Both the position numbers and the translations under genes were made by a program. The notes under the pieces are model-generated. The model was not told the DNA's origin. It did not search any database and saw nothing but the letters and a program-made list of their open reading frames with translations. A stretch of 36,178 nucleotides of DNA from a virus. Taxonomy: Duplodnaviria > Heunggongvirae > Uroviricota > Caudoviricetes. Position 1 is the first letter of the stretch. Every line of letters begins with the position of its first letter. The stretch is from IMG/VR virus record IMGVR_UViG_2695420793_000017, one strand, 5' to 3'. Below are positions 2,856-25,270 of this stretch, in pieces.

Positions 2856-3074
2856 TCAAAGAGAGAGCGCCACCTGCCCTGATTTCATTGGATGCGGCTG
2901 AACCGGATTTGACTCTTTTGGCGTTGCAATCGAACGAACAAAAGTTTCATGGGTAACAAAAGTATGGCTGCAGTTAATGTTCTGGCACTGGTTGTAACGC
3001 TCTTTGGTCAATGAAGATACCTGAAAACTGCTGCGAGTATGGGCGGCACTTCCACACAGTGGGCAAATCATCAT
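2856..3074 (-). CDS. ogr: late gene transcriptional activator Ogr (zinc finger)
   Basis: CPLCG...CQNINC zinc-finger pattern; aligns with P2 Ogr as recalled; start placed at the second Met because the listed ORF begins at a GTG. Confidence 0.8.
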   Translation of the reverse strand: MMICPLCGSAAHTRSSFQVSSLTKERYNQCQNINCSHTFVTHETFVRSIATPKESNPVQPHPMKSGQVALSL

Positions 3075-3164
3075 TTTTCGAGTTCTCCCCATTTTTGCTA
3101 AATTCACAACAATGATACCGCATTATTCCATTTTGCAAACTTAAAAGTTCTCCATTGCGAAGAA

Positions 3165-4265
3165 TCATTCCATTTCGAAATCATCAATCCTCACTTCAAG
3201 CTCCAGACTGGTCGTAAAACCGTTATCCGGGCTGACGGTATGCGTCAGAGTCGTAATGGTCCATTCCGCATCATCTATCGGCTGTTTAAAGCCACTGACT
3301 TTCACTGGCATTTCCGTGTAGAGATCTGCCCGCCCTTCCGCCAGTTGTAGCGAGAATGACGCAACGCCGCGTTGCAGGCGTTCCCACTGCATTTTCGCTG
3401 CCCGTTCGGCGTTACTCCGATTAGCATAGGTGCGATTAAGTACCAGCACGTTTTCATCCGTACCCACCAGGTAATCGCCCTGCTTCGCTTCCGGCTCTTT
3501 CTTCTGCTTCTTAGTCCTGCGCTTACGCTTCACCGCGGTGCTTTCTTTCTTCGCGGGTTCGCGGGTATGCAACCAGCTGGCAATTACGCCCGTGTAAGCT
3601 CCGCGATCTGCCAGGGTAAAGCGGTGACTGTCGCCGTCCTTACGTGTGATAGTGATAACCGGTAGTGGTTTACCACTGGCGCTTTTACCCTGCCCCTGTC
3701 GGATGAATAACAGATTGCCATTTTTCACCGACGCAATAGCACCGTACTGGCGCGCCAGCCGCATCAGAAAACTGCCGTCACTCTCATTGGTCTGGTCTAT
3801 ATGTTCCACGGGTTTATCTGACAGGTCTTTACCCAATGCCATCTTCAGTTTGTGCCGCGCAGCTATTTCCTTCACCACTTCCCCAACGGTGGTCTTGTGC
3901 CACGACTTTTCACGGCGGGTATTCAGTGTTTCACGAAAATCAGCACTTCGCGCCCGGATAGTCAGGCGATCCGGTGCGCCAGTGTGTTCAATCTCGTCCA
4001 CCGTGAATGCCCCTTTCGGGAAAAGCAGCTGCCCCTTCCAGCCCAGCGCCAGCGTAATGACCGCACCACGGCGCGGCAGCACGATTTTTCCATCGGCGTC
4101 GTCCAGTTCCAGATCAAGCTGGTCCGCTTCAAAGCCCCGGTTATCCGTCAGCGTAAGCCCCATCAGGCGGTTGTCCAGCACAGTAGTGATATCCCTGCCT
4201 TCAATACTGATGCTGAATGCCGGAGTTTTGTTGCCTTTGTTAAGCAGTTCAGAGCTGAAATTCAC
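3165..4265 (-). CDS. D: tail protein D (late control D)
   Basis: 366-aa ORF at the P2 gpD position; translation resembles the gpD family. Confidence 0.8.
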   Translation of the reverse strand: MNFSSELLNKGNKTPAFSISIEGRDITTVLDNRLMGLTLTDNRGFEADQLDLELDDADGKIVLPRRGAVITLALGWKGQLLFPKGAFTVDEIEHTGAPDRLTIRARSADFRETLNTRREKSWHKTTVGEVVKEIAARHKLKMALGKDLSDKPVEHIDQTNESDGSFLMRLARQYGAIASVKNGNLLFIRQGQGKSASGKPLPVITITRKDGDSHRFTLADRGAYTGVIASWLHTREPAKKESTAVKRKRRTKKQKKEPEAKQGDYLVGTDENVLVLNRTYANRSNAERAAKMQWERLQRGVASFSLQLAEGRADLYTEMPVKVSGFKQPIDDAEWTITTLTHTVSPDNGFTTSLELEVRIDDFEME

Positions 4266-4747
4266 GACAGCAGCCCTCCCACCGTTTTACTGATATCGCT
4301 TAAGGCAGACGTTGCCGTGTCCTGCAGATTATTCAGTTGAGTACTGAGATCACCGAACATATCGGACAGGGATTCATCCACCCGTTTTAGCGAAAGGGTG
4401 AACTCAATCCTGCGCGGCATACCGTCGCGGAAAAACTCCGTTTTAGTCTGATTCAGTCCCTCAATCACATACATGCCATAAATCGTGCCGCTGCCTTCAA
4501 TCAGGGGCCATGCTTTCCCCTGTTCTGCCATCTGCTCCAGTGCCAGCAACGACAGCCTGCCACCTGTTATCTCCGGCATAAGAACACCGGAAAGCGTCAG
4601 CATGTCGTTGTCCGGTCCCAGAAACTGCGTGGACGGACGTCGGTTTACCCGGCTGTTTGCCGCATGTCGCCAGCTGCGCTGATACTGCAGCTCCTGATAC
4701 GGCACGGTGCGCAGCATAAACACGTACAATCCCAGCACCATCATCAT
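4262..4747 (-). CDS. U: tail protein U
   Basis: 161-aa ORF; start codon overlaps the gpT stop; P2 gpU position and size. Confidence 0.8.
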   Translation of the reverse strand: MMMVLGLYVFMLRTVPYQELQYQRSWRHAANSRVNRRPSTQFLGPDNDMLTLSGVLMPEITGGRLSLLALEQMAEQGKAWPLIEGSGTIYGMYVIEGLNQTKTEFFRDGMPRRIEFTLSLKRVDESLSDMFGDLSTQLNNLQDTATSALSDISKTVGGLLS

Positions 4748-7700
4748 GCGTCGTATCCCCCCTGATCGCTGTAGTTACTCCTGGCTTTTGCCTTCAGCCT
4801 GCGTTCACGTTCATCAAGCTGGCGGGCCACCTCCCGCGCAATATCCTGCGCACTTTGTCCTGGCTGCGTCTGGATGATGATCTGCGTCGGTGCCTCAATC
4901 CTGTAAACAGGCGGCACAGTGGCTGCGCGACTCACAATTGCTTCTCCACCTTTCGTGGGAAGTGCCAAAGGGTGCAACGGTGGAAGCTCTGCTGGCGCGG
5001 CAGCAACGCCCATCATTCCGGCAACAACGGCAGCCAGTGCAGCTGTATTTCTCCGGCTGGTCACATTTGCCGGGCCGTTAACAATTTCCGGCCCGTTTTC
5101 ACCGACGATGCCAAACTGCCCGCGCGGGATATACCCGCCGCTGTCATACATCCCCGCAAAGCCATATCCCCATGATGGAAAACCACCCGATGGCATCATC
5201 ACTTTACCGTCTGCATTCACCGTCGCAGGTTGCTGACGCGTCACGCTTTCCGGCAGTTTTGCCTTTGCGGCCTCTTTACTGACAATGCCGAGTTTATCCA
5301 GCAACCAGGAAACGCCGGATTTCAGGGAGTCCAGCGGATGCATGACCATATTCAGCCCTTCCGCCAGTGCCTCCCCGAATCGCCGCCCCATTGCCGCTGC
5401 ACTCTGCAGTTCGGCAGAGGTCGACTTAACGGGCGTCAGCAGATCAGTAAACCAGCCCCACAGCGCCTGTACTTTGTCGCCAATCCACTGAAACACAGGC
5501 TTAAGTGGTTCGAATGCAGCACTGATGGGAGCTGCCGCCGCTTTGAATCCTTCAACCACGCCACCGAGAAATGCGGTGATGGGTTGCCAGTATTTCCAGA
5601 CAACCAGCGCCACGCCCGCCAGTGCAGTAACCACAAGACCTATCGGACTGAGCAGAGCACCTAACAGACCAGATATGGCATACAGGGCAACGCGCAGCAT
5701 CGCCAGCGGACCAGATGCAAGCACACGAAGCACCGCGCCTGCGGCAGCCAGTCCACCGCGCAGTACCGCCAGAGGATTCATAAACATCACAGCAACAGCA
5801 CGTAAAGCGGATAATCCAGACCGCAATAGTGCAACCGGCGCACCTGCTACAGTTTTCAGGACATTTCCCGTCAGTGATGCCGTACGGCGCAAAGACGACA
5901 ACGGCGCAGTAAGTAAACCCGCTGCGTTACCCGATGAAGCAAGCCCGCGTCGCAGCACTGCCAGTGGAGCGCCAGCCAGCCAGGACAACGCGCTGCTGGT
6001 TCGTGTTACTGCTGCCGTAACGGAAGGTAACGTTTTGATGCCCAGCACAGAGAATCCCAGACGGATGACTGCCAGCGGCCCCAGCACTGCAGCCAGCGCC
6101 ACAGCCAAGATGCCGAGGCCTACGGTAACCGCAGCCACAATAGCGGCTACTTTCATCAGTGTGCCCGTCAGTTCCGGGTTAGCTTCCACCCAGCGACGCA
6201 ACGCCCCCGTGACGCTTTTCACCGTGTACAGAATATCCATCAGCGGCTGGCGCAGCGTTTCGCCCAGGCTGCTGAAGGTGTTCTGCGCTCCGGTTTTGAC
6301 CAGCAACCACTGAGCAGAAAGTGAATCCTTGTTAATGTCGGATTCTTTCTGCATGGAGCCGAGCGCATCATTGCCCGCTGTCAGTTTTAACTGACGCTGC
6401 AGTTCCGGCAGGTTGTTTGCCAGTTTCGCCGCGTCATCGCCAAACTCTTTACCAAACAACATAGTCATGGCAGACAGGCGCTTGTCCTGCGGCAGCGCGT
6501 TTACCTTCTCCAGCACGCGCTGGATGGTTCCCATCGCATCCTTCGTCATCTGCTTTTCAATCACTTCAGGATTGAGTTTCAGCAGATTCATCCCTTCAAA
6601 GAAACTCTTGCTTTGCATGGTGGCAATGGACAATTCACGCACCATCGCGTTTGCTGCACTGGCTGCAACCTCCGGCGCAGCACCCAGAGTCAGGAAGGTG
6701 GAACCCAGCGCCGCCGCTTTACGATAATCGAGACGGTCAGCCACACCGCCCAGACGTTGCATCACATCGATGATGTCTGCCCCTTTCGACATTGCGTTAT
6801 CATCCAGATAGTTCAGCGCATCACCGAGCTGTTCAATATTGCGGGTAGGTATTTTGTAGAGCTGGGCGATTTTCCCCAGACTTTCTGACAGTTCATCCGC
6901 TGGCAGCTCAAAGGCTGTTGCCGCCTTCGCCGCCGTACTGGCGAAGGCCAGCAGGTCACGTTTCTGGTCTTCCCAGCTGTCGTCAGGATTTGCGACGTTC
7001 ATGCGCGCACCACCTTCAACCAGTGCAGCGAAGTCCACCGCACCGTTTTCCATCGGCAACTGTTCGCTGGCAGCTTTGATGGCATCCTGCATTTCATAAA
7101 AACGTGCAGTGCGGTTGCCATTATCGTCACGCAGACCATTGACCTGCTTTGCCACACCTTTCATGGCATCTTCCATGCTGGTATAGCTTTTTACTGCCGC
7201 CATCACTGGCGTCCCCATTGCCAGCCCTGCAGCCGTGGTGGTGGCTCCGGCTCCTGCGATGCGATCGCGCACCTCCAGCGAACGGGCATAACTGGCACGC
7301 GCTGCATTCATCCTGCGCTGAGCTTCCCCCAGTCGCTTCAGCCGCGCCTCCTGTTTCGACAGTTCCTGGTTATAACGTGATGTTTCACGGGCTAAACGGG
7401 CAGTTGCTCCCGCATCGTCTTTCGCAGAAATTCCCGCCCGGTACAGTTCAGCACGCACAAGCGCCGTCTGCTGCTGCAGCTTTTTCTGGCGTTCTTCCAG
7501 GCGCTGAACAGCCAGCCGTTGACGGCCCAGAGCAACAACCTGACGTTGCGAAGGCGGCCCCATCGCTCCCAGTTCCTGACTGAGCAAATTTGCACGCTGG
7601 CGGGCATAGTTCAGCCTGTCGCCTAATTTCTGATTTTCTGCCTGCAGCTTTCGGAAGCTGTCCAGACTGCTCCCGGCCTGATCAAGCTGCTTTATTGCAT

Positions 7701-8829: not shown

Positions 8830-10002
8830 TTACGCGCTGACCTGGCTGGCAAAATTCACCAGGTACTGATCGGTGATGCGCTGACGCAGCATCAGGTTTT
8901 CAAGTGGCGGCACTGGCGTGTAGTCGTAGTCAATGGTGAGCTTCCCGGCTTTCAGCGTGTCTTTATCGTTCACCGACTCATCCAGCCAGCAATCACCACC
9001 AATGAGATACCCCTGACTGACCAGGCTGCGCATTTTGGCGCGGATACCTTCGATAATGTCGCGGGCCAGCGACGGGTTCAGCGGTTTGTCCACTGCCCAC
9101 ATGTGCGCTTCTGCCATTGTGTCCGTCAGCACCTGCGCCGTGCGGGTGTAGTTTTCGAAGGCAAAGAGCGGGTCATCACTCAGGCAGCGGGAACCCCAGA
9201 AGCGGAAACCGTCTTTACGCACAAGCGTGGTGACGTCGTTCTGGTTCAGCAGACCTGCATCGGTTGCCGGGTCCTGCAGATCCCAGAACACATCTGCAGA
9301 AATTCCGGTGACACCGTTCACGCCCACGTTGGACAGGCTTTTGTGCCATCCGGTCTGCTCATCAATTTTGGCACGCAGACCAAGCGCACGGGCGGTGGCA
9401 TATGCCGTTGCTTCGGCATTCAGCACCGTGTCCCAGCCAGTAAAGTCGGGCCAGATCAGCATTCCTTCGCGCTGGCTGAAGTTTTCACGGTAAGTGATCG
9501 CCTCCTGCACCGTCTTGCAGCCATACGCTGACAGGTAAGCAAACCCACGCAGGCTTTGCGCCACACTCAGCAACTCAGTAGCAACGGCTTTGTTATCGTG
9601 ACCTGGCACGCCGAGAATGCGCGGTTTAACGCCGAGCTGTGTCTGGGCAGATAACAGGGCTTTCATGCCTGTTTTTTTACCTTCAGCAGTCACTGCGCCG
9701 ATGATATTGGTCGTGGTTTCTTCTTCCGTTTCACCCTGCGGCACACGCACAACAACGGTCACGGGTTTTGCCTGGTCAGCGATGGCATCCAGCGAACGGG
9801 CCAGCGTGCCGGACTCACCCGCTTTACCGCTGGCAGTCAGCACATCAGTGATCAGCACGGGTTTATTAAGAGGAAACATTTTTGCATCGGCATCATCGCC
9901 CGTGCAGACCATACCCACGATGGCGGTGCTCACCGTGGTAATGGATCGGGTGCCTTCGTTAACTTCAACAACGCGCACCCCGTGGTGGTAATCCTGAGCC
10001 AT
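8830..10002 (-). CDS. FI: tail sheath protein FI
   Basis: 390-aa ORF; AGGAGG 8 nt upstream of the ATG; gpFI family. Confidence 0.85.
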
Positions 10003-10078
10003 AGTGGCGAACCTCCTGATTGGATTAGGCTTCGCCCTATGTTGAAGTGATTGTGCCTGACAAACAGCTAAGCGCAGT

Positions 10079-10096
10079 TGTACCGTTATTCACACA
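10079..10096 (-). promoter_or_regulatory. putative Ogr-dependent late promoter element (TGT-N12-ACA dyad) upstream of FI
   Basis: TGTaccgttattcacACA, centred about 85 nt upstream of the FI ATG; P2 late promoters carry this dyad (recalled). Confidence 0.5.
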
Positions 10097-10136
10097 AAAT
10101 AACGGTATTTGTCCGCTTGCAGGAAAAATCTCTGCA

Positions 10137-10162
10137 TTTTTATAAACGTTGGTTTAGGAGAT
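10137..10162. promoter_or_regulatory. putative serine-invertase crossover site (gix/hix-like), left
   Basis: TTTTTATAAACG-TT-GGTTTAGGAGAT resembles the hix/gix 12-2-12 sites as recalled; its reverse complement shares a 10/12 half-site and the core with 11683-11708. Confidence 0.45.
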
Positions 10163-10515
10163 GCGGCAAAAAAAATGTTGGCACTGGTTCCGGACAGATT
10201 CCGGACATGTCTTCATTTGGTAATCAGCGAGCCGATTCGGGGTATCAATACCTGCCAGGCGGGTTAATTCTTCAATGGGCAATAGCCAAAACGAAAACAT
10301 CCCCAGAAACAGTATCATTCCCGATTGCGTTTCCAACCAGGGCGCTATGTGTTGTTGCAACAGACCAGAGTGTTGGGGGTACAGGTCAAGGTTTTGCGTT
10401 AACCGCCCAGAATTTTACGAGAACTAATTTCCAGCTACGCGCTTATCAGACAGGAACCAACGCTGAATCATCCATCGGCGCTGGCGGGTTTAACTATTTT
10501 GCTGTGGGGTATTAA
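10151..10515 (+). pseudogene. alternative tail-fibre C-terminal cassette, silent in this orientation and out of frame at an A8 tract
   Basis: the frame ending ...PGGLILQW...FPIAFP...FAVGY is homologous to the C-terminus of H; it has no in-frame 5' continuation unless a -1 shift occurs at A8 (10168-10175). Confidence 0.55.
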
Positions 10516-10518
10516 TAA

Positions 10519-10950
10519 ATGGCTTATTTTTATTCAGCATTAAATAACGCTTTCTACCCTGATGAGCTCAGAGATGTTTATGAAGCGAGTAGAAACTGGC
10601 CTGACGATCTCATAGCCGTCTCAGATGAGACATTCACTGAATATTCGGGGATGCCACCAGAGGGTAAAACTCGTGGAGCTACTGAGGATGGAATGCCGGC
10701 ATGGGTAGACATTCCACCTTTAAGCCATGAGGAGGAAATCGCAGCAGCTGAAGCTGAAAAACAGTATCGTATCGATCAGGCTAATGAGTATATAAACAGC
10801 AAGCAGTGGCCGGGTAAAGCTGCGCTGGGGCGACTTACAGACGACGAGAAGGCCCAGTATAACGAGTGGCTGGATTATCTCGATGCGCTGGAATCTGTGG
10901 ACATATCCAGCGCACCAGATATCAACTGGCCTGAGTCGCCGGAGGAGTAG
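10519..10950 (+). CDS. tail fibre assembly protein, alternative copy (tfa')
   Basis: 143-aa ORF homologous to the minus-strand tfa (shared ...AFY.DEL..., ...WPDD..., ...ALAEAEK... patterns); convergent with and overlapping it at 10922-10950. Confidence 0.7.
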
Positions 10951-11353
10951 GCCAGTCCGGGTCTGCTGTATCAACTCGCATCAGCAGCACCCGGTATTTT
11001 TTCCATTCGGCTAATGAAACAGTTTCTTCTTCCGTCGCGATCCCCGCATCAACGGCGTCCTGCCGCCATTCTATTTCAGAGTCAGCTGAAGCACGCAGTC
11101 GCGATTTTTCGGCTTCTGCCAACGCAATAATTTCCTCTTCAGTTGGTTCGGGAATATCTATCCATTCAGGTAAACCATCAGAATTAGGAGCGCGTAATTT
11201 TCCGTTAGGTGATTCTCCGGCAAACTCAACGAATACGGAATAGTCTACTTCAACGGCATCGTCAGGCCAGCTACCTGCATTTTCATAAATACTTTTTAGC
11301 TCATCAGCGTAGAACGCATTTTCTTTTGCAGAATAAAACATATTAATCACCAT
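10922..11353 (-). CDS. tail fibre assembly protein (gpG-like)
   Basis: 143-aa ORF immediately downstream of H; the P2 G position. Confidence 0.8.
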
Positions 11354-12744
11354 CCAATCGCGAAAACTCTAAAGCCACCGTAGCCAGCACATGTAATCTG
11401 AGTTCTTGTTACCGTCGTATAGTATGATCGGCCCACCGCTAAGCTATATGCGGCTGTAGAACTCAAATCAACTGCCCCAGTTGATACATCACTAAATAAC
11501 GGAATCATGCACTCATTTGGGAATGCAATAGGGAAATTCGCAGTTACTGGTGTCACATAATCAGTTGTAGCAGCACCAAACCACTGCAATATGATCACCC
11601 GTTCTTTCCCGGCGACCATTGCCGGGATAGTCATATAGCCTGTAGAGCCGGTCACACACACCGCTGCGCCTAATTTTGCTCCCTCTCCCAAACCAAGGTA
11701 TGCGAGAAGACCAGCTACATCCTTTCCACTCAAATTAGTCAGCGTATTGTCCAGCGGTTGTTTACCTGCCAGCGCATTAAGCATTGTCGTGGCAAAGTTC
11801 GGGTCATTCCCCAGCGCCGCAGCCAGTTCGTTCAGTGTATCCAGTGCAGCAGGTGCAGACCCCACCATTGCCGCAATTGCCGATTTCACAAAAGCCGTGG
11901 TGGCAATCTGTGTATTGTTAACCGACTGTGCGGCAGTGGGGGCTGTTGGCGTTCCGGTGAGTGCCGGACTTGACAGCGACGCTTTCAGTGCCAGCGCATT
12001 GTTAATGGTGGTACTGAATTTCGGGTCATTATTAATGGCAGCGGCAATTTCTTTCAGCGTATCCAGTGTGGCTGGCGCACCATTAATAAGGGCCATCAGT
12101 GCCGCCTGAACAAACGCGGTGGTCGCAATCTGCGTGGTGTTATTCCCCTCCGCTGGCGTTGGCGCTTTGGGTGTTCCGGTCAATGTCGGGCTTTCTTTGG
12201 GTGCATACTGTGAATGCGGGTCCGGTGCGGCAAGATGTTTTGCCATCTTATCATCCACGAACACCTTCAGCTCCAGTACCTTGTCATCCACATACTTGCG
12301 GGTTGCCAGCACGACGGCAGGGTCGATTTTCAGGGTGATATTGTCCGTGCTGCTGGTAATCAGCACCATGCGCACGGTCTGGGTGCGCCCGCTGCCTTCA
12401 GCCAGTTGCGGCTTATAGCTTTCCGGGCAGTTGCCTACGGCAATCAATGCCCCGGACTCATCAAACAGACCCACTTCACGTATCCACCAACCACCCTCAT
12501 TTTCAGGGATCACCTGTTCAGCAATAATCTGGCTGCTGTTCTGTGGGTCGATATAGAGCATATTCAGCGCAGCCCGACGTTTCTCATTTACCAGTGCACT
12601 CTGCTTTGCGTCCGGCGTCGGCAATGTTCCGCCACCATCGCCCACCGCCATATGGGTAATTTTTAGCGGCACACCGAGCGCGGCGGCGCTGGCAAGTTTC
12701 GCCGCGCCAATATCCGTCAGCAGGGTATAAAATTTTGTGCTCAT
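11347..12744 (-). CDS. H: tail fibre protein H
   Basis: 465-aa ORF with a conserved N-terminus, internal repeats and a variable C-terminus; start overlaps the gpI stop. Confidence 0.85.
11683..11708. promoter_or_regulatory. putative serine-invertase crossover site (gix/hix-like), right, inside H
   Basis: CTCTCCCAAACC-AA-GGTATGCGAGAA; lies in the H codons for AYLGLGEG at the constant/variable junction. Confidence 0.45.
11755..12192. repeat. tandem duplication of about 219 bp (about 73 aa) inside H
   Basis: two protein modules ...LTGTP.APT...[11 protein letters not shown]...APA.LDTL.E.AAA..NDP.F.TT..NALA.K in tandem (H residues about 185-257 and 258-330); boundaries approximate. Confidence 0.6.
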
Positions 12745-13346
12745 GGATTCACTCTCATTGTGTCAATAACATGGACCGCCCCGCCTTCATGCGCGGTGCC
12801 GCCAGAAATAATTGTTTCGTTGATATACGGATAGATCGTGATTTCTTCGCCAAGATAGCTGGCGGCTCCCACCCAATGCGGGCCGCTGGTCTGCAGATTG
12901 ATGGACATGCCGATCATGTGGCGGCTACATGGTTTGGCATCGCTTATCAGTCGCTCAAGTTCCAGATAGGTATCTTCAGTGATGCCCTGGTCCTGCACGC
13001 CGATATCCAGGCGAAACGTGCCCGGAGCCTCTCCGGTCTGCCACCACTCAATAATGCGGATCAGGAATCCGAACGGTTCCACCACCCGCCGCACGGCACT
13101 GGTGGTTCCTTTATGCTGATGAATATAAAAAGCATCCTTCACTACCTGGCGTTTGACGCTTTCTGTCCAGCCCTCGTCCCAGCGATCCACAGAGAACGCC
13201 CAGGCGAGATAAGGCAGGAAGCTGACCGGACAGGTAGCCGGATTCCACAAGTCACGCAGCGGCACCTGCAGATCAGAAATCCCGCTACAGGTTTGCGCCA
13301 GTCGGCGCTCCAGTGAAGTTGAACCCGGTGGCAGCAGACTATTCAT
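12741..13346 (-). CDS. I: baseplate assembly protein I
   Basis: 201-aa ORF in the P2 V-W-J-I-H order. Confidence 0.75.
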   Translation of the reverse strand: MNSLLPPGSTSLERRLAQTCSGISDLQVPLRDLWNPATCPVSFLPYLAWAFSVDRWDEGWTESVKRQVVKDAFYIHQHKGTTSAVRRVVEPFGFLIRIIEWWQTGEAPGTFRLDIGVQDQGITEDTYLELERLISDAKPCSRHMIGMSINLQTSGPHWVGAASYLGEEITIYPYINETIISGGTAHEGGAVHVIDTMRVNP

Positions 13347-24019: not shown

Positions 24020-25270
24020 TTATCGCCATTTTAGATAAAAAGCAAAAAATGGATCAGTAATATGCAACTTTCGGTCCTCCTTATCCCAATCTATTACAGG
24101 AGTTGAAGCTTCTTCCGTAGCAGCTATTTTAGCCATTTTTTCTATAACACGAGTAACCTCATGAGCTTGTGGAGGAGCATCTTGCACCAGTTCGCGTATG
24201 GCTGATCTTAACTCCTCATACTGAATACTTTGCATTCCTGGTTTCATATGTGACAATGCATATAATACAACTTTATATATATCTACTTCCTCACCACTTT
24301 TCAGTTTTCTAGGAATTCTGTCAGTTCGCTGATTAGGGCCACTAGCTAACTTATCAAATACTATTTTCCCAGTGGATTCTGCAACCTTTCTAAAAATATC
24401 ATCATCTAAAGAATTAATAACTAACTTACTCGGCAAAGTTTCTTTAACATTATTTACTAAGCATATAGCCTTGCAAAACTCTTGCATTAAATGAGGGCTT
24501 CCCAATGATTCATTGGCAATTTTATCAATTACTGAATCACTAACTTCCATGTTTAACAGAGGAAATCCCACTTTTGCTATTTGTTTTAGTTCATCCATTT
24601 CCCACGAAGGCATGGAAATATTTTCTAGCCGTCCGGTAATTTCTTTTTCAACTTTTACAGCATCATATCTTCGATGTGGAATGGCTATCAGTACAACTGG
24701 TACTCCATCAAAAACTAATGGTTTTATCGCTCTAATAAAGTTACCTTGTAGGTCACGATCAAGGTAATGAAAGTCATCAATTATAAGACTAGACTTGGTT
24801 TGAGAGAGAACTTTTAGTGCAGAACTTTTTGCGGATATCGTTCGCGATTTTTTATTACCATTTGACTTTCCATCCGTCTGAACTAAACCAGCCTCACCTG
24901 TACCTTTAACAACGAATGCACTTGCGGTCCCCGATACCTTACCACTAACTGCAATAGCACTATTTTCTCCAGAATTAACTTCAATACTATGGTAGCCATT
25001 TAGTTTTTCTAATACCTGCTCCCAAATATCATCTTCAGTTGTAATACTCCCACCGTCAATCCATACAACATCATCGTCCATAACTGGGAATACCATTCTT
25101 GTAATTACAGTCTTACCAGACTTTGTTTGCCCAGTTAAAGTCACTAACTTACATAAATTATCTTTAGCACTCTCCAGTTTTCCATGAACCTCTCCTTCAG
25201 AGCGCTCAACATAAGTCAATTTCGGCATACCGCCAGGCACAAAAACTTGTGAAGCACGTTGTTTATCCAT
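24020..25270 (-). CDS. P-loop NTPase of unknown function (accessory gene, candidate anti-phage defence)
   Basis: 416-aa ORF; Walker A GQTKSGKT and Walker B-like LIIDDFHYLDRD; visibly AT-rich versus neighbours; lies between cos and Q. Confidence 0.8.
   Translation of the reverse strand: MDKQRASQVFVPGGMPKLTYVERSEGEVHGKLESAKDNLCKLVTLTGQTKSGKTVITRMVFPVMDDDVVWIDGGSITTEDDIWEQVLEKLNGYHSIEVNSGENSAIAVSGKVSGTASAFVVKGTGEAGLVQTDGKSNGNKKSRTISAKSSALKVLSQTKSSLIIDDFHYLDRDLQGNFIRAIKPLVFDGVPVVLIAIPHRRYDAVKVEKEITGRLENISMPSWEMDELKQIAKVGFPLLNMEVSDSVIDKIANESLGSPHLMQEFCKAICLVNNVKETLPSKLVINSLDDDIFRKVAESTGKIVFDKLASGPNQRTDRIPRKLKSGEEVDIYKVVLYALSHMKPGMQSIQYEELRSAIRELVQDAPPQAHEVTRVIEKMAKIAATEEASTPVIDWDKEDRKLHITDPFFAFYLKWR

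Follow-up and report, generated by a model that had tools for sequence, protein, structure and literature searches.

A tail-fibre switch cassette of an Escherichia coli P2/186-like prophage, very probably locked in one orientation and decaying

Introduction

Tail-fibre switching by DNA inversion is a known kind of host-range switch, and several systems of this type have been described. In the G segment of phage Mu, which is served by the invertase Gin and the sites gixL and gixR, a constant exon is followed by a 26-bp site, a tip with its chaperone, an inverted second chaperone and second tip, and another 26-bp site. The C segment of phage P1 has the same type of architecture and sites. Tail-fibre loci of Escherichia coli P2-like prophages, such as those of the enteropathogenic E. 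coli (EPEC) strain E2348/69, have been shown experimentally to invert and phase-vary (PMC4272514), and in the Hin system, a 65-bp element that is bound by Fis and located about 100 bp away from hix serves as the enhancer (PMC3798978). Here, we describe a locus of this type in a viral DNA stretch of 36,178 nucleotides (IMG/VR record IMGVR_UViG_2695420793_000017; hereafter, the window). The window is identical to positions 3366989-3403166 of the E. coli Ecol_224 chromosome NZ_CP018948.1 and contains a complete P2/186-like prophage located between ybjL and rcdA, in which every gene is annotated as intact. Its layout is that of the Mu G segment, with the constant 5' exon of the tail-fibre gene H lying outside a segment that holds two convergent 3' exons (the expressed tip and a silent alternative, tip') and their cognate tail-fibre assembly chaperones (tfa and tfa').

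It was originally predicted from the sequence that this segment can invert, exchange the fibre tip and its chaperone and thereby change host range. For the allele in the window this does not hold, as the invertase gene has been deleted and tip' is frameshifted. The comparisons presented below make it very probable that the locus is a Din-family (Gin/Cin/Pin/Hin-type) invertible tail-fibre cassette that has become fixed in one orientation and is decaying.

Loss of the Invertase Gene

In Din-family systems the cassette adjoins a gene for a small serine recombinase composed of a Resolvase domain and a C-terminal HTH_7 domain. No such gene stands beside the cassette in the window, and the earlier statement that the 36-kb stretch lacks an invertase open reading frame (ORF) is borne out: a tblastn search of the window with the proteins of two relatives detected neither an invertase nor a remnant of one (best E = 0.06, chance level), and the RefSeq annotation of the stretch lists none. 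In Ecol_224, no recombinase gene was found within 37 kb on either side. The recombinase is present in Klebsiella phage KP12 and in four related prophages, namely those of E47 (L002) and WEC (L003) and two others, L004 and L005, which are described in the next section. The missing enzyme is of the Din family: its counterpart in the relatives is 73-76% identical to Mu Gin, 79% identical to P1 Cin and 99.5% identical to the annotated invertase of KP12.

The E47 and WEC prophages share the backbone of the window, with sheath proteins that are 99.5% identical in amino acid sequence, and in both of them a 188-amino-acid Resolvase plus HTH_7 recombinase is encoded where the window passes directly from sheath gene to cassette. 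Alignment with these two prophages delimits the deletion. Window positions 9800-10130 align to positions 2601-2931 of L002 and L003, and from window position 10128/10130 onwards the alignment continues at position 3559 of L003 and 3561 of L002, respectively. The missing stretch of about 630 bp consists of the whole recombinase coding sequence (CDS; 2946-3512) together with 14 bp downstream and 49 bp upstream of it, and a 3-bp microhomology is found at the junction. The left crossover site survives the deletion with 18 bp of its 68-bp spacer. Farther along, window positions 11659-12900 are 94-95% identical in nucleotide sequence to L002 and L003, with the similarity ending approximately 25-35 bp inside the crossover core.

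Two other accounts of the missing gene were rejected. Deletion by the invertase itself is opposed by the junction, which is situated about 18 bp away from the core, on its outer side, and has no more than the 3-bp microhomology. An ancestral state without invertase is opposed by the homology of the outer half-site and the remaining 18 bp of spacer to the invertase-proximal sequence of the relatives, and also by the fixed geometry common to Mu, L003 and L004, in all of which 67-68 bp separate the site core from the invertase start codon.

The deletion is likely to have had a second effect. A Fis-dependent enhancer would have been lost along with the invertase gene, because the enhancer of gin and hin lies inside the invertase gene and here the whole homologous gene is deleted. 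For Mu, the stimulating site is reportedly situated within gin, according to the title of a 1985 paper by Kahmann and colleagues that is among the references of PMC3798978. When a generic Fis-motif regular expression was applied to the relatives' invertase genes, no clear pair of sites with enhancer spacing was obtained.

The Same Cassette Flipped in Other Prophages

In the E. coli genomes NZ_CM151386 (L004) and NZ_CP182145 (L005), the window cassette recurs with nucleotide identities of 99.6 and 97.7%, respectively. The P2-like backbone that surrounds it there is divergent, with amino acid identities to the window of 70% for the constant part of H, 68% for the sheath and 55% for protein I, and it carries an intact 197-amino-acid Resolvase plus HTH_7 recombinase. 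With respect to H and the invertase, the cassette has the opposite orientation in both genomes. H of L004 and L005 continues in frame into the tip corresponding to tip' of the window, giving an ORF of 397 amino acids (465 in the window), and the tip that is expressed in the window is silent there. The chaperones follow the same pattern, as tfa' has the accession WP_060615093.1 in common with the tfa that lies 3' of H, on the same strand, in L004.

The arrangement of the sites in L004 is TTCTCGCATACC-TT-GGTTTAGGAGAT ... CTCTCCCAAACC-AA-CGTTTATGAAAA, compared with TTTTTATAAACG-TT-GGTTTAGGAGAT ... CTCTCCCAAACC-AA-GGTATGCGAGAA in the window. Thus, the window and L004/L005 differ by a swap of the outer half-sites that has its breakpoints precisely at the dinucleotide core. 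Such a swap is the signature of exchange by a serine invertase and disposes of the idea that the sites merely reflect protein homology. Inversion by core exchange is therefore seen in the lineage of the cassette, as it is flipped in L004 and L005 and the E47-type cassette occurs both ways; the window allele itself has one orientation in all five genomes that carry it.

The tip expressed in the window shows no differences from the silent copy of L004, and comparison of window positions 10146-11696 with L004 positions 3501-5052 yields four substitutions, all of them non-synonymous and all within tip', which is silent in the window and expressed in L004. The remaining approximately 1180 bp of the cassette contain no substitutions. 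A cassette that is 99.6% identical beside backbone proteins that are 55-70% identical points to recent lateral transfer of the whole cassette between P2-like lineages differing by 30-45% in protein sequence, and the transferred segment begins and ends at the crossover sites. In E. coli KW21 and Combat11I9, pinE is adjoined by a copy of the half that is expressed in the window (tfa and tip, window positions 10777-11700), at 97% nucleotide identity; this tip module therefore circulates between e14-like and P2-like elements.

Frameshift in the Silent Tip

A point absent from the original prediction is that the crossover site and the second tip are not in the same reading frame. Immediately inward of the left site, at positions 10168-10175, the window has a run of eight A residues (A8) where L004 and L005 have nine (A9). 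This one-nucleotide deletion places the silent tip at -1 relative to the crossover site, and the expressed tip is in frame. Of the two alternative exons, one can therefore be read from the constant exon and the silent one cannot. When the window cassette was flipped in silico, H stopped 30 codons after AYLGLGD, ending in ...QAG*, and the flipped protein would have no receptor-binding tip. This also bears on annotation: the 133-amino-acid "gp53-like" CDS called by PGAP at 10117-10515 corresponds to the silent frameshifted exon and not to a gene.

The Crossover Sites

The two sites are imperfect palindromes of 26 bp with a 12-2-12 structure. They stand in inverted orientation, and their 2-bp cores are identical (AA) when read in that orientation, as is characteristic of Din-family sites. 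Their positions had been given correctly to the base in the original prediction, as judged by a site scan and by the core swap in L004 and L005, and the right site does lie at the constant/variable junction of H, where it coincides with the codons for AYLGLGEG. By string search, this motif starts at residue 348 of H (0-based offset 347).

The scan searched the 36-kb window for 12-2-12 palindromes of the half-site consensus TTCTCNNAAACC, which was in part drawn up with these two sites already in view. Exactly two sites were found, with scores of 16/20 (left) and 18/20 (right); in shuffled sequence the identical scan gave 0.008 sites at a score of at least 16. The comparison with known gix sites that had been proposed turned out favourably, as the same scan recovers both gixL and gixR of Mu at the annotated boundaries of the G segment, along with the site pairs of four related prophages. 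The 13-mer TCTCCYAAACCAA common to both sites occurs exactly twice in perfect form, where chance would be expected to give 0.05 occurrences with no more than one mismatch. A third half-site match at 24795-24807, with one mismatch, has no palindromic partner half and was set aside as a chance match.

Orientation Among Genomes

The window allele is found in five complete genomes, Ecol_224, MS6192, MS6193, CH468 and NCTC11023. These are 100% identical over 2301 bp, with the deletion junction and the A8 run included, and in all five the cassette has the same orientation. For the E47-type cassette, whose invertase is intact, public assemblies show the forward orientation in one genome and the flipped orientation in two (Z1323PEC0012 and JML285). 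These counts agree with a locked state of the window allele, and the numbers are small.

Layout of the Locus and Neighboring Genes

The coordinates of the features are collected in Table 1. The genes named in the original prediction (H of 465 amino acids, its tfa, and the second tfa and second tip) are all present where they had been placed, and domain searches assign a Gp53-like_C domain to both tips and a Caudo_TAP domain to both chaperones. Amino acid identity is 31% between tip and tip' and 41% between tfa and tfa', and the two pairs are therefore real alternatives as opposed to duplicates.

Table 1. Features of the fibre-switch locus, in window coordinates.
Feature	Position	Strand	Remarks
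Tail sheath gene FI	8830-10002	-	390-amino-acid ORF, annotated as phage tail sheath protein; left neighbor of the switch
TGT-N12-ACA dyad	10079-10096	none	Read from the sequence; precedes the sheath start codon by about 85 bp
Deletion junction	10128-10132	none	About 630 bp lost, with the serine invertase gene and all but 18 bp of the 68-bp spacer
Left (invertase-proximal) crossover site	10137-10162		TTTTTATAAACG-TT-GGTTTAGGAGAT; core 10149-10150
Silent alternative fibre-tip exon, tip'	10151-10515	+	Gp53-like_C, E 5.5e-19; out of frame with crossover site
Silent alternative tail-fibre assembly chaperone, tfa'	10519-10950	+	Caudo_TAP, E 1.9e-38
Expressed tail-fibre assembly chaperone, tfa	10922-11353	-	Caudo_TAP, E 1e-33
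Tail-fibre gene H	11347-12744	-	465 amino acids; Phage_tail_fib N-terminal domain and Gp53-like_C
Expressed variable tip exon of H	11347-11694	-	Gp53-like_C at H residues 384-465
Right crossover site, inside H	11683-11708		CTCTCCCAAACC-AA-GGTATGCGAGAA; core 11695-11696
Constant part of H	11697-12744	-	Phage_tail_fib N-terminal domain, E 1.3e-64

A gap of 135 bp separates the sheath gene from the left site. It holds a dyad that is presumably the Ogr/Delta-dependent late-promoter element of P2-like phages. The dyad is part of the segment 9800-10130, where identity to the relatives is 97%, and it is kept in the window, with 34 bp between it and the deletion. A larger inverted repeat (10070-10090/10098-10118) encloses it.

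Several further observations were made along the way. The convergent chaperone genes, tfa' on the plus strand and tfa on the minus strand, overlap at their 3' ends by 29 bp (10922-10950), and the identical overlap is found in L004. H contains an internal direct repeat with a spacing of 222 nucleotides (about 74 amino acids) at window positions 11752-12000, with motifs that include LDTL(K/N)E(I/L)AAA. On the minus strand at 24020-25270, adjoining the portal gene in the usual cargo position of P2, a 416-amino-acid "hypothetical protein" is encoded. It has a match to PDC-S59, a candidate defence family of PADLOC (E 2.4e-31), and a weak one to AAA_22; judging from these matches and its location, it may be an anti-phage cargo gene. 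An nfsA pseudogene with an internal stop lies just outside the window in Ecol_224 (L010 35837-36559) and is unrelated to the switch.

Discussion

The evidence can be accommodated in a simple scheme. In the intact system, as represented by the close relatives, the sheath gene and the cassette flank the gene of a Gin-like serine invertase, which starts 68 bp from the left site. The enzyme recombines the two inverted 26-bp sites at their 2-bp cores and flips the 1.55-kb segment. Each flip joins the constant part of H (residues 1 to about 350) to one or the other of two unrelated tips of about 113 amino acids, each then followed by its own chaperone. In the window, a microhomology-flanked deletion of about 630 bp took the whole invertase gene and, by homology with gin and hin, probably the enhancer as well; both crossover sites, the expressed pair of H and tfa and the region upstream of the sheath gene were spared. 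The unexpressed tip has lost one A from its A9 run, probably at a later time, such that a flip would now give a truncated, tipless H. The most economical order is that the invertase deletion came first and the frameshift of the unselected silent tip later, since frameshifting one tip of a switch that is still active would be lethal to part of the progeny.

With the invertase deleted and the silent tip frameshifted, the window allele would not switch productively, and the prophage is therefore expected to make a single fibre type. For host-range prediction, this means that the phage should display only one type of fibre, the one bearing the tip now joined to H. The locus should be filed as the remnant of a Din-type switch and not as a functional member. 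Of the two possibilities left by the original prediction, namely an invertase supplied in trans or a fossil, the fossil has been substantiated by the deletion and the frameshift, and a working host-range switch driven in trans has not; supply in trans as such is possible through invertase homologues elsewhere in four of the five host chromosomes. The genome-wide search for an invertase that it called for thus finds homologues, and in Ecol_224 no recombinase gene lies within 37 kb on either side.

A number of observations speak against a cassette that is fully locked. Five genomes in one orientation are a small sample, and as orientation is known from assemblies alone, rare inversion within a population may occur. 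The A8 run can slip back to A9. The loss of the enhancer is deduced from gin/hin homology and the literature as opposed to a recognizable motif. Moreover, four of the five host chromosomes hold two to three further loci homologous to the invertase. These were counted as the matching places of a chimeric query (cassette plus invertase gene) minus those of a cassette-only control, which gave +3 for Ecol_224, +3 for CH468, +2 for MS6192, +2 for MS6193 and 0 for NCTC11023. There are also precedents for action in trans: the H segment of Salmonella is a target of Fin from Fels-2 (PMC4122451), and the P segment of e14 is a target of PinQ from Qin (PMC12529663).

These observations lend some substance to the idea of a switch that still works at a low rate, in which a resident Pin-type invertase of another prophage would flip the cassette in trans to a biologically relevant extent. 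Both 26-bp sites are indeed intact with matching cores, candidate invertases are at hand in the four chromosomes named above, and the precedents show that such enzymes can act in trans. However, the substrates in those precedents retain their own invertase gene and hence the enhancer, whereas here the gene is gone and the nearest 37 kb on either side hold no recombinase. Trans flipping would thus lack a nearby enhancer and would not yield a working fibre, as the flipped state codes for a truncated H and would give fibre-less particles in place of a new host range. In addition, NCTC11023 has no extra chromosomal homologue, and a single orientation is seen in all five assemblies. A biologically relevant switch of this type is thus considered unlikely.

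A more elaborate version is a two-layer, host-controlled switch, in which inversion by a Pin-type enzyme acting in trans is combined with slippage between A8 and A9, such that the second host range would occasionally be restored, or in which the truncated H would benefit the host. This is regarded as less likely still. It is more improbable still that the missing invertase and the A8 run are artefacts of assembly or sequencing. Homopolymer runs are error-prone on some sequencing platforms, but five separate complete-genome assemblies agree on the junction and the A8 run within 2301 identical bp, and their agreement makes sequencing error unlikely. Finally, the notion that the sites are a mere by-product of opposite-strand protein homology (the GLG motif of both tips) in a segment that never inverted can practically be dismissed: the inner half-sites do code for the conserved LGLG(D/E) of both tips and the inverted repeat runs about 12 nucleotides further into coding sequence, but the outer half of the left site, TTTTTATAAACG, is non-coding and yet completes the palindrome with the inner half, the consensus also finds the Mu sites, the Gin-like invertase of the relatives sits at the canonical 68-bp distance, and the exchange of outer half-sites at the core around an identical, inverted cassette in L004 and L005 refutes it. 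The original prediction had named this by-product as a possible refutation of its own claim.

Apart from the fate of this allele, the comparison maps the crossover sites of the P2-like fibre switch to the base and validates them against related prophages. The locus belongs to a known kind of host-range switch and poses no challenge to current understanding.

Comparison With Known Systems

The window cassette shares with the Mu G segment the order of exons, chaperones and sites outlined in the Introduction, and in both a 2-bp core is flanked by half-sites of the form TTnTCnnAAACC. The invertase of the relatives resembles Gin in sequence and starts at the same distance from the core as in Mu. 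The window differs from Mu in having no invertase gene and a frameshifted silent tip, in its smaller cassette (1.55 kb as opposed to about 3 kb), in its tips, which are short Gp53-like_C domains, and in its core, which is AA where Mu has TC/GA. The similarity to the P1 C segment lies in the architecture and the sites.

The P2-like cassettes are also among the closest systems. Those of the E47, WEC and 02B21CPO003B prophages, Klebsiella phage KP12 and the EPEC E2348/69 prophages have the order H, tfa, tfa', tip', invertase and sheath and the same sites, and the cassette (99.6% in L004) and sheath (99.5% in L002) of the window are nearly identical to theirs. In contrast to these, the window allele is a locked derivative, set apart by the invertase deletion of about 630 bp and the A8 frameshift. 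The e14 P segment (PinE) uses the same family of sites and invertases, and it is pinE that the expressed half of the window cassette adjoins in KW21 and Combat11I9. However, e14 retains pinE and therefore the enhancer, and its inversion leads to an intact chimeric protein, whereas a flip of the window cassette would lead to a truncated product.

The EC11 type (L006, NZ_CP073360) has the same backbone and likewise a non-functional invertase. This type has lost the N-terminus of the invertase, tip' and the 5' part of tfa', and its sole site is the one on the side of H, whereas the window keeps both sites and both halves. At L006 positions 2946-3367, the invertase is reduced to its C-terminal HTH. 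Decay of the EC11 type is found in at least 13 genomes among the matches listed and is commoner than that of the window type. Taken together, the window allele and the EC11 type, which arose by a different deletion, indicate that such switches have been lost repeatedly in E. coli prophages.

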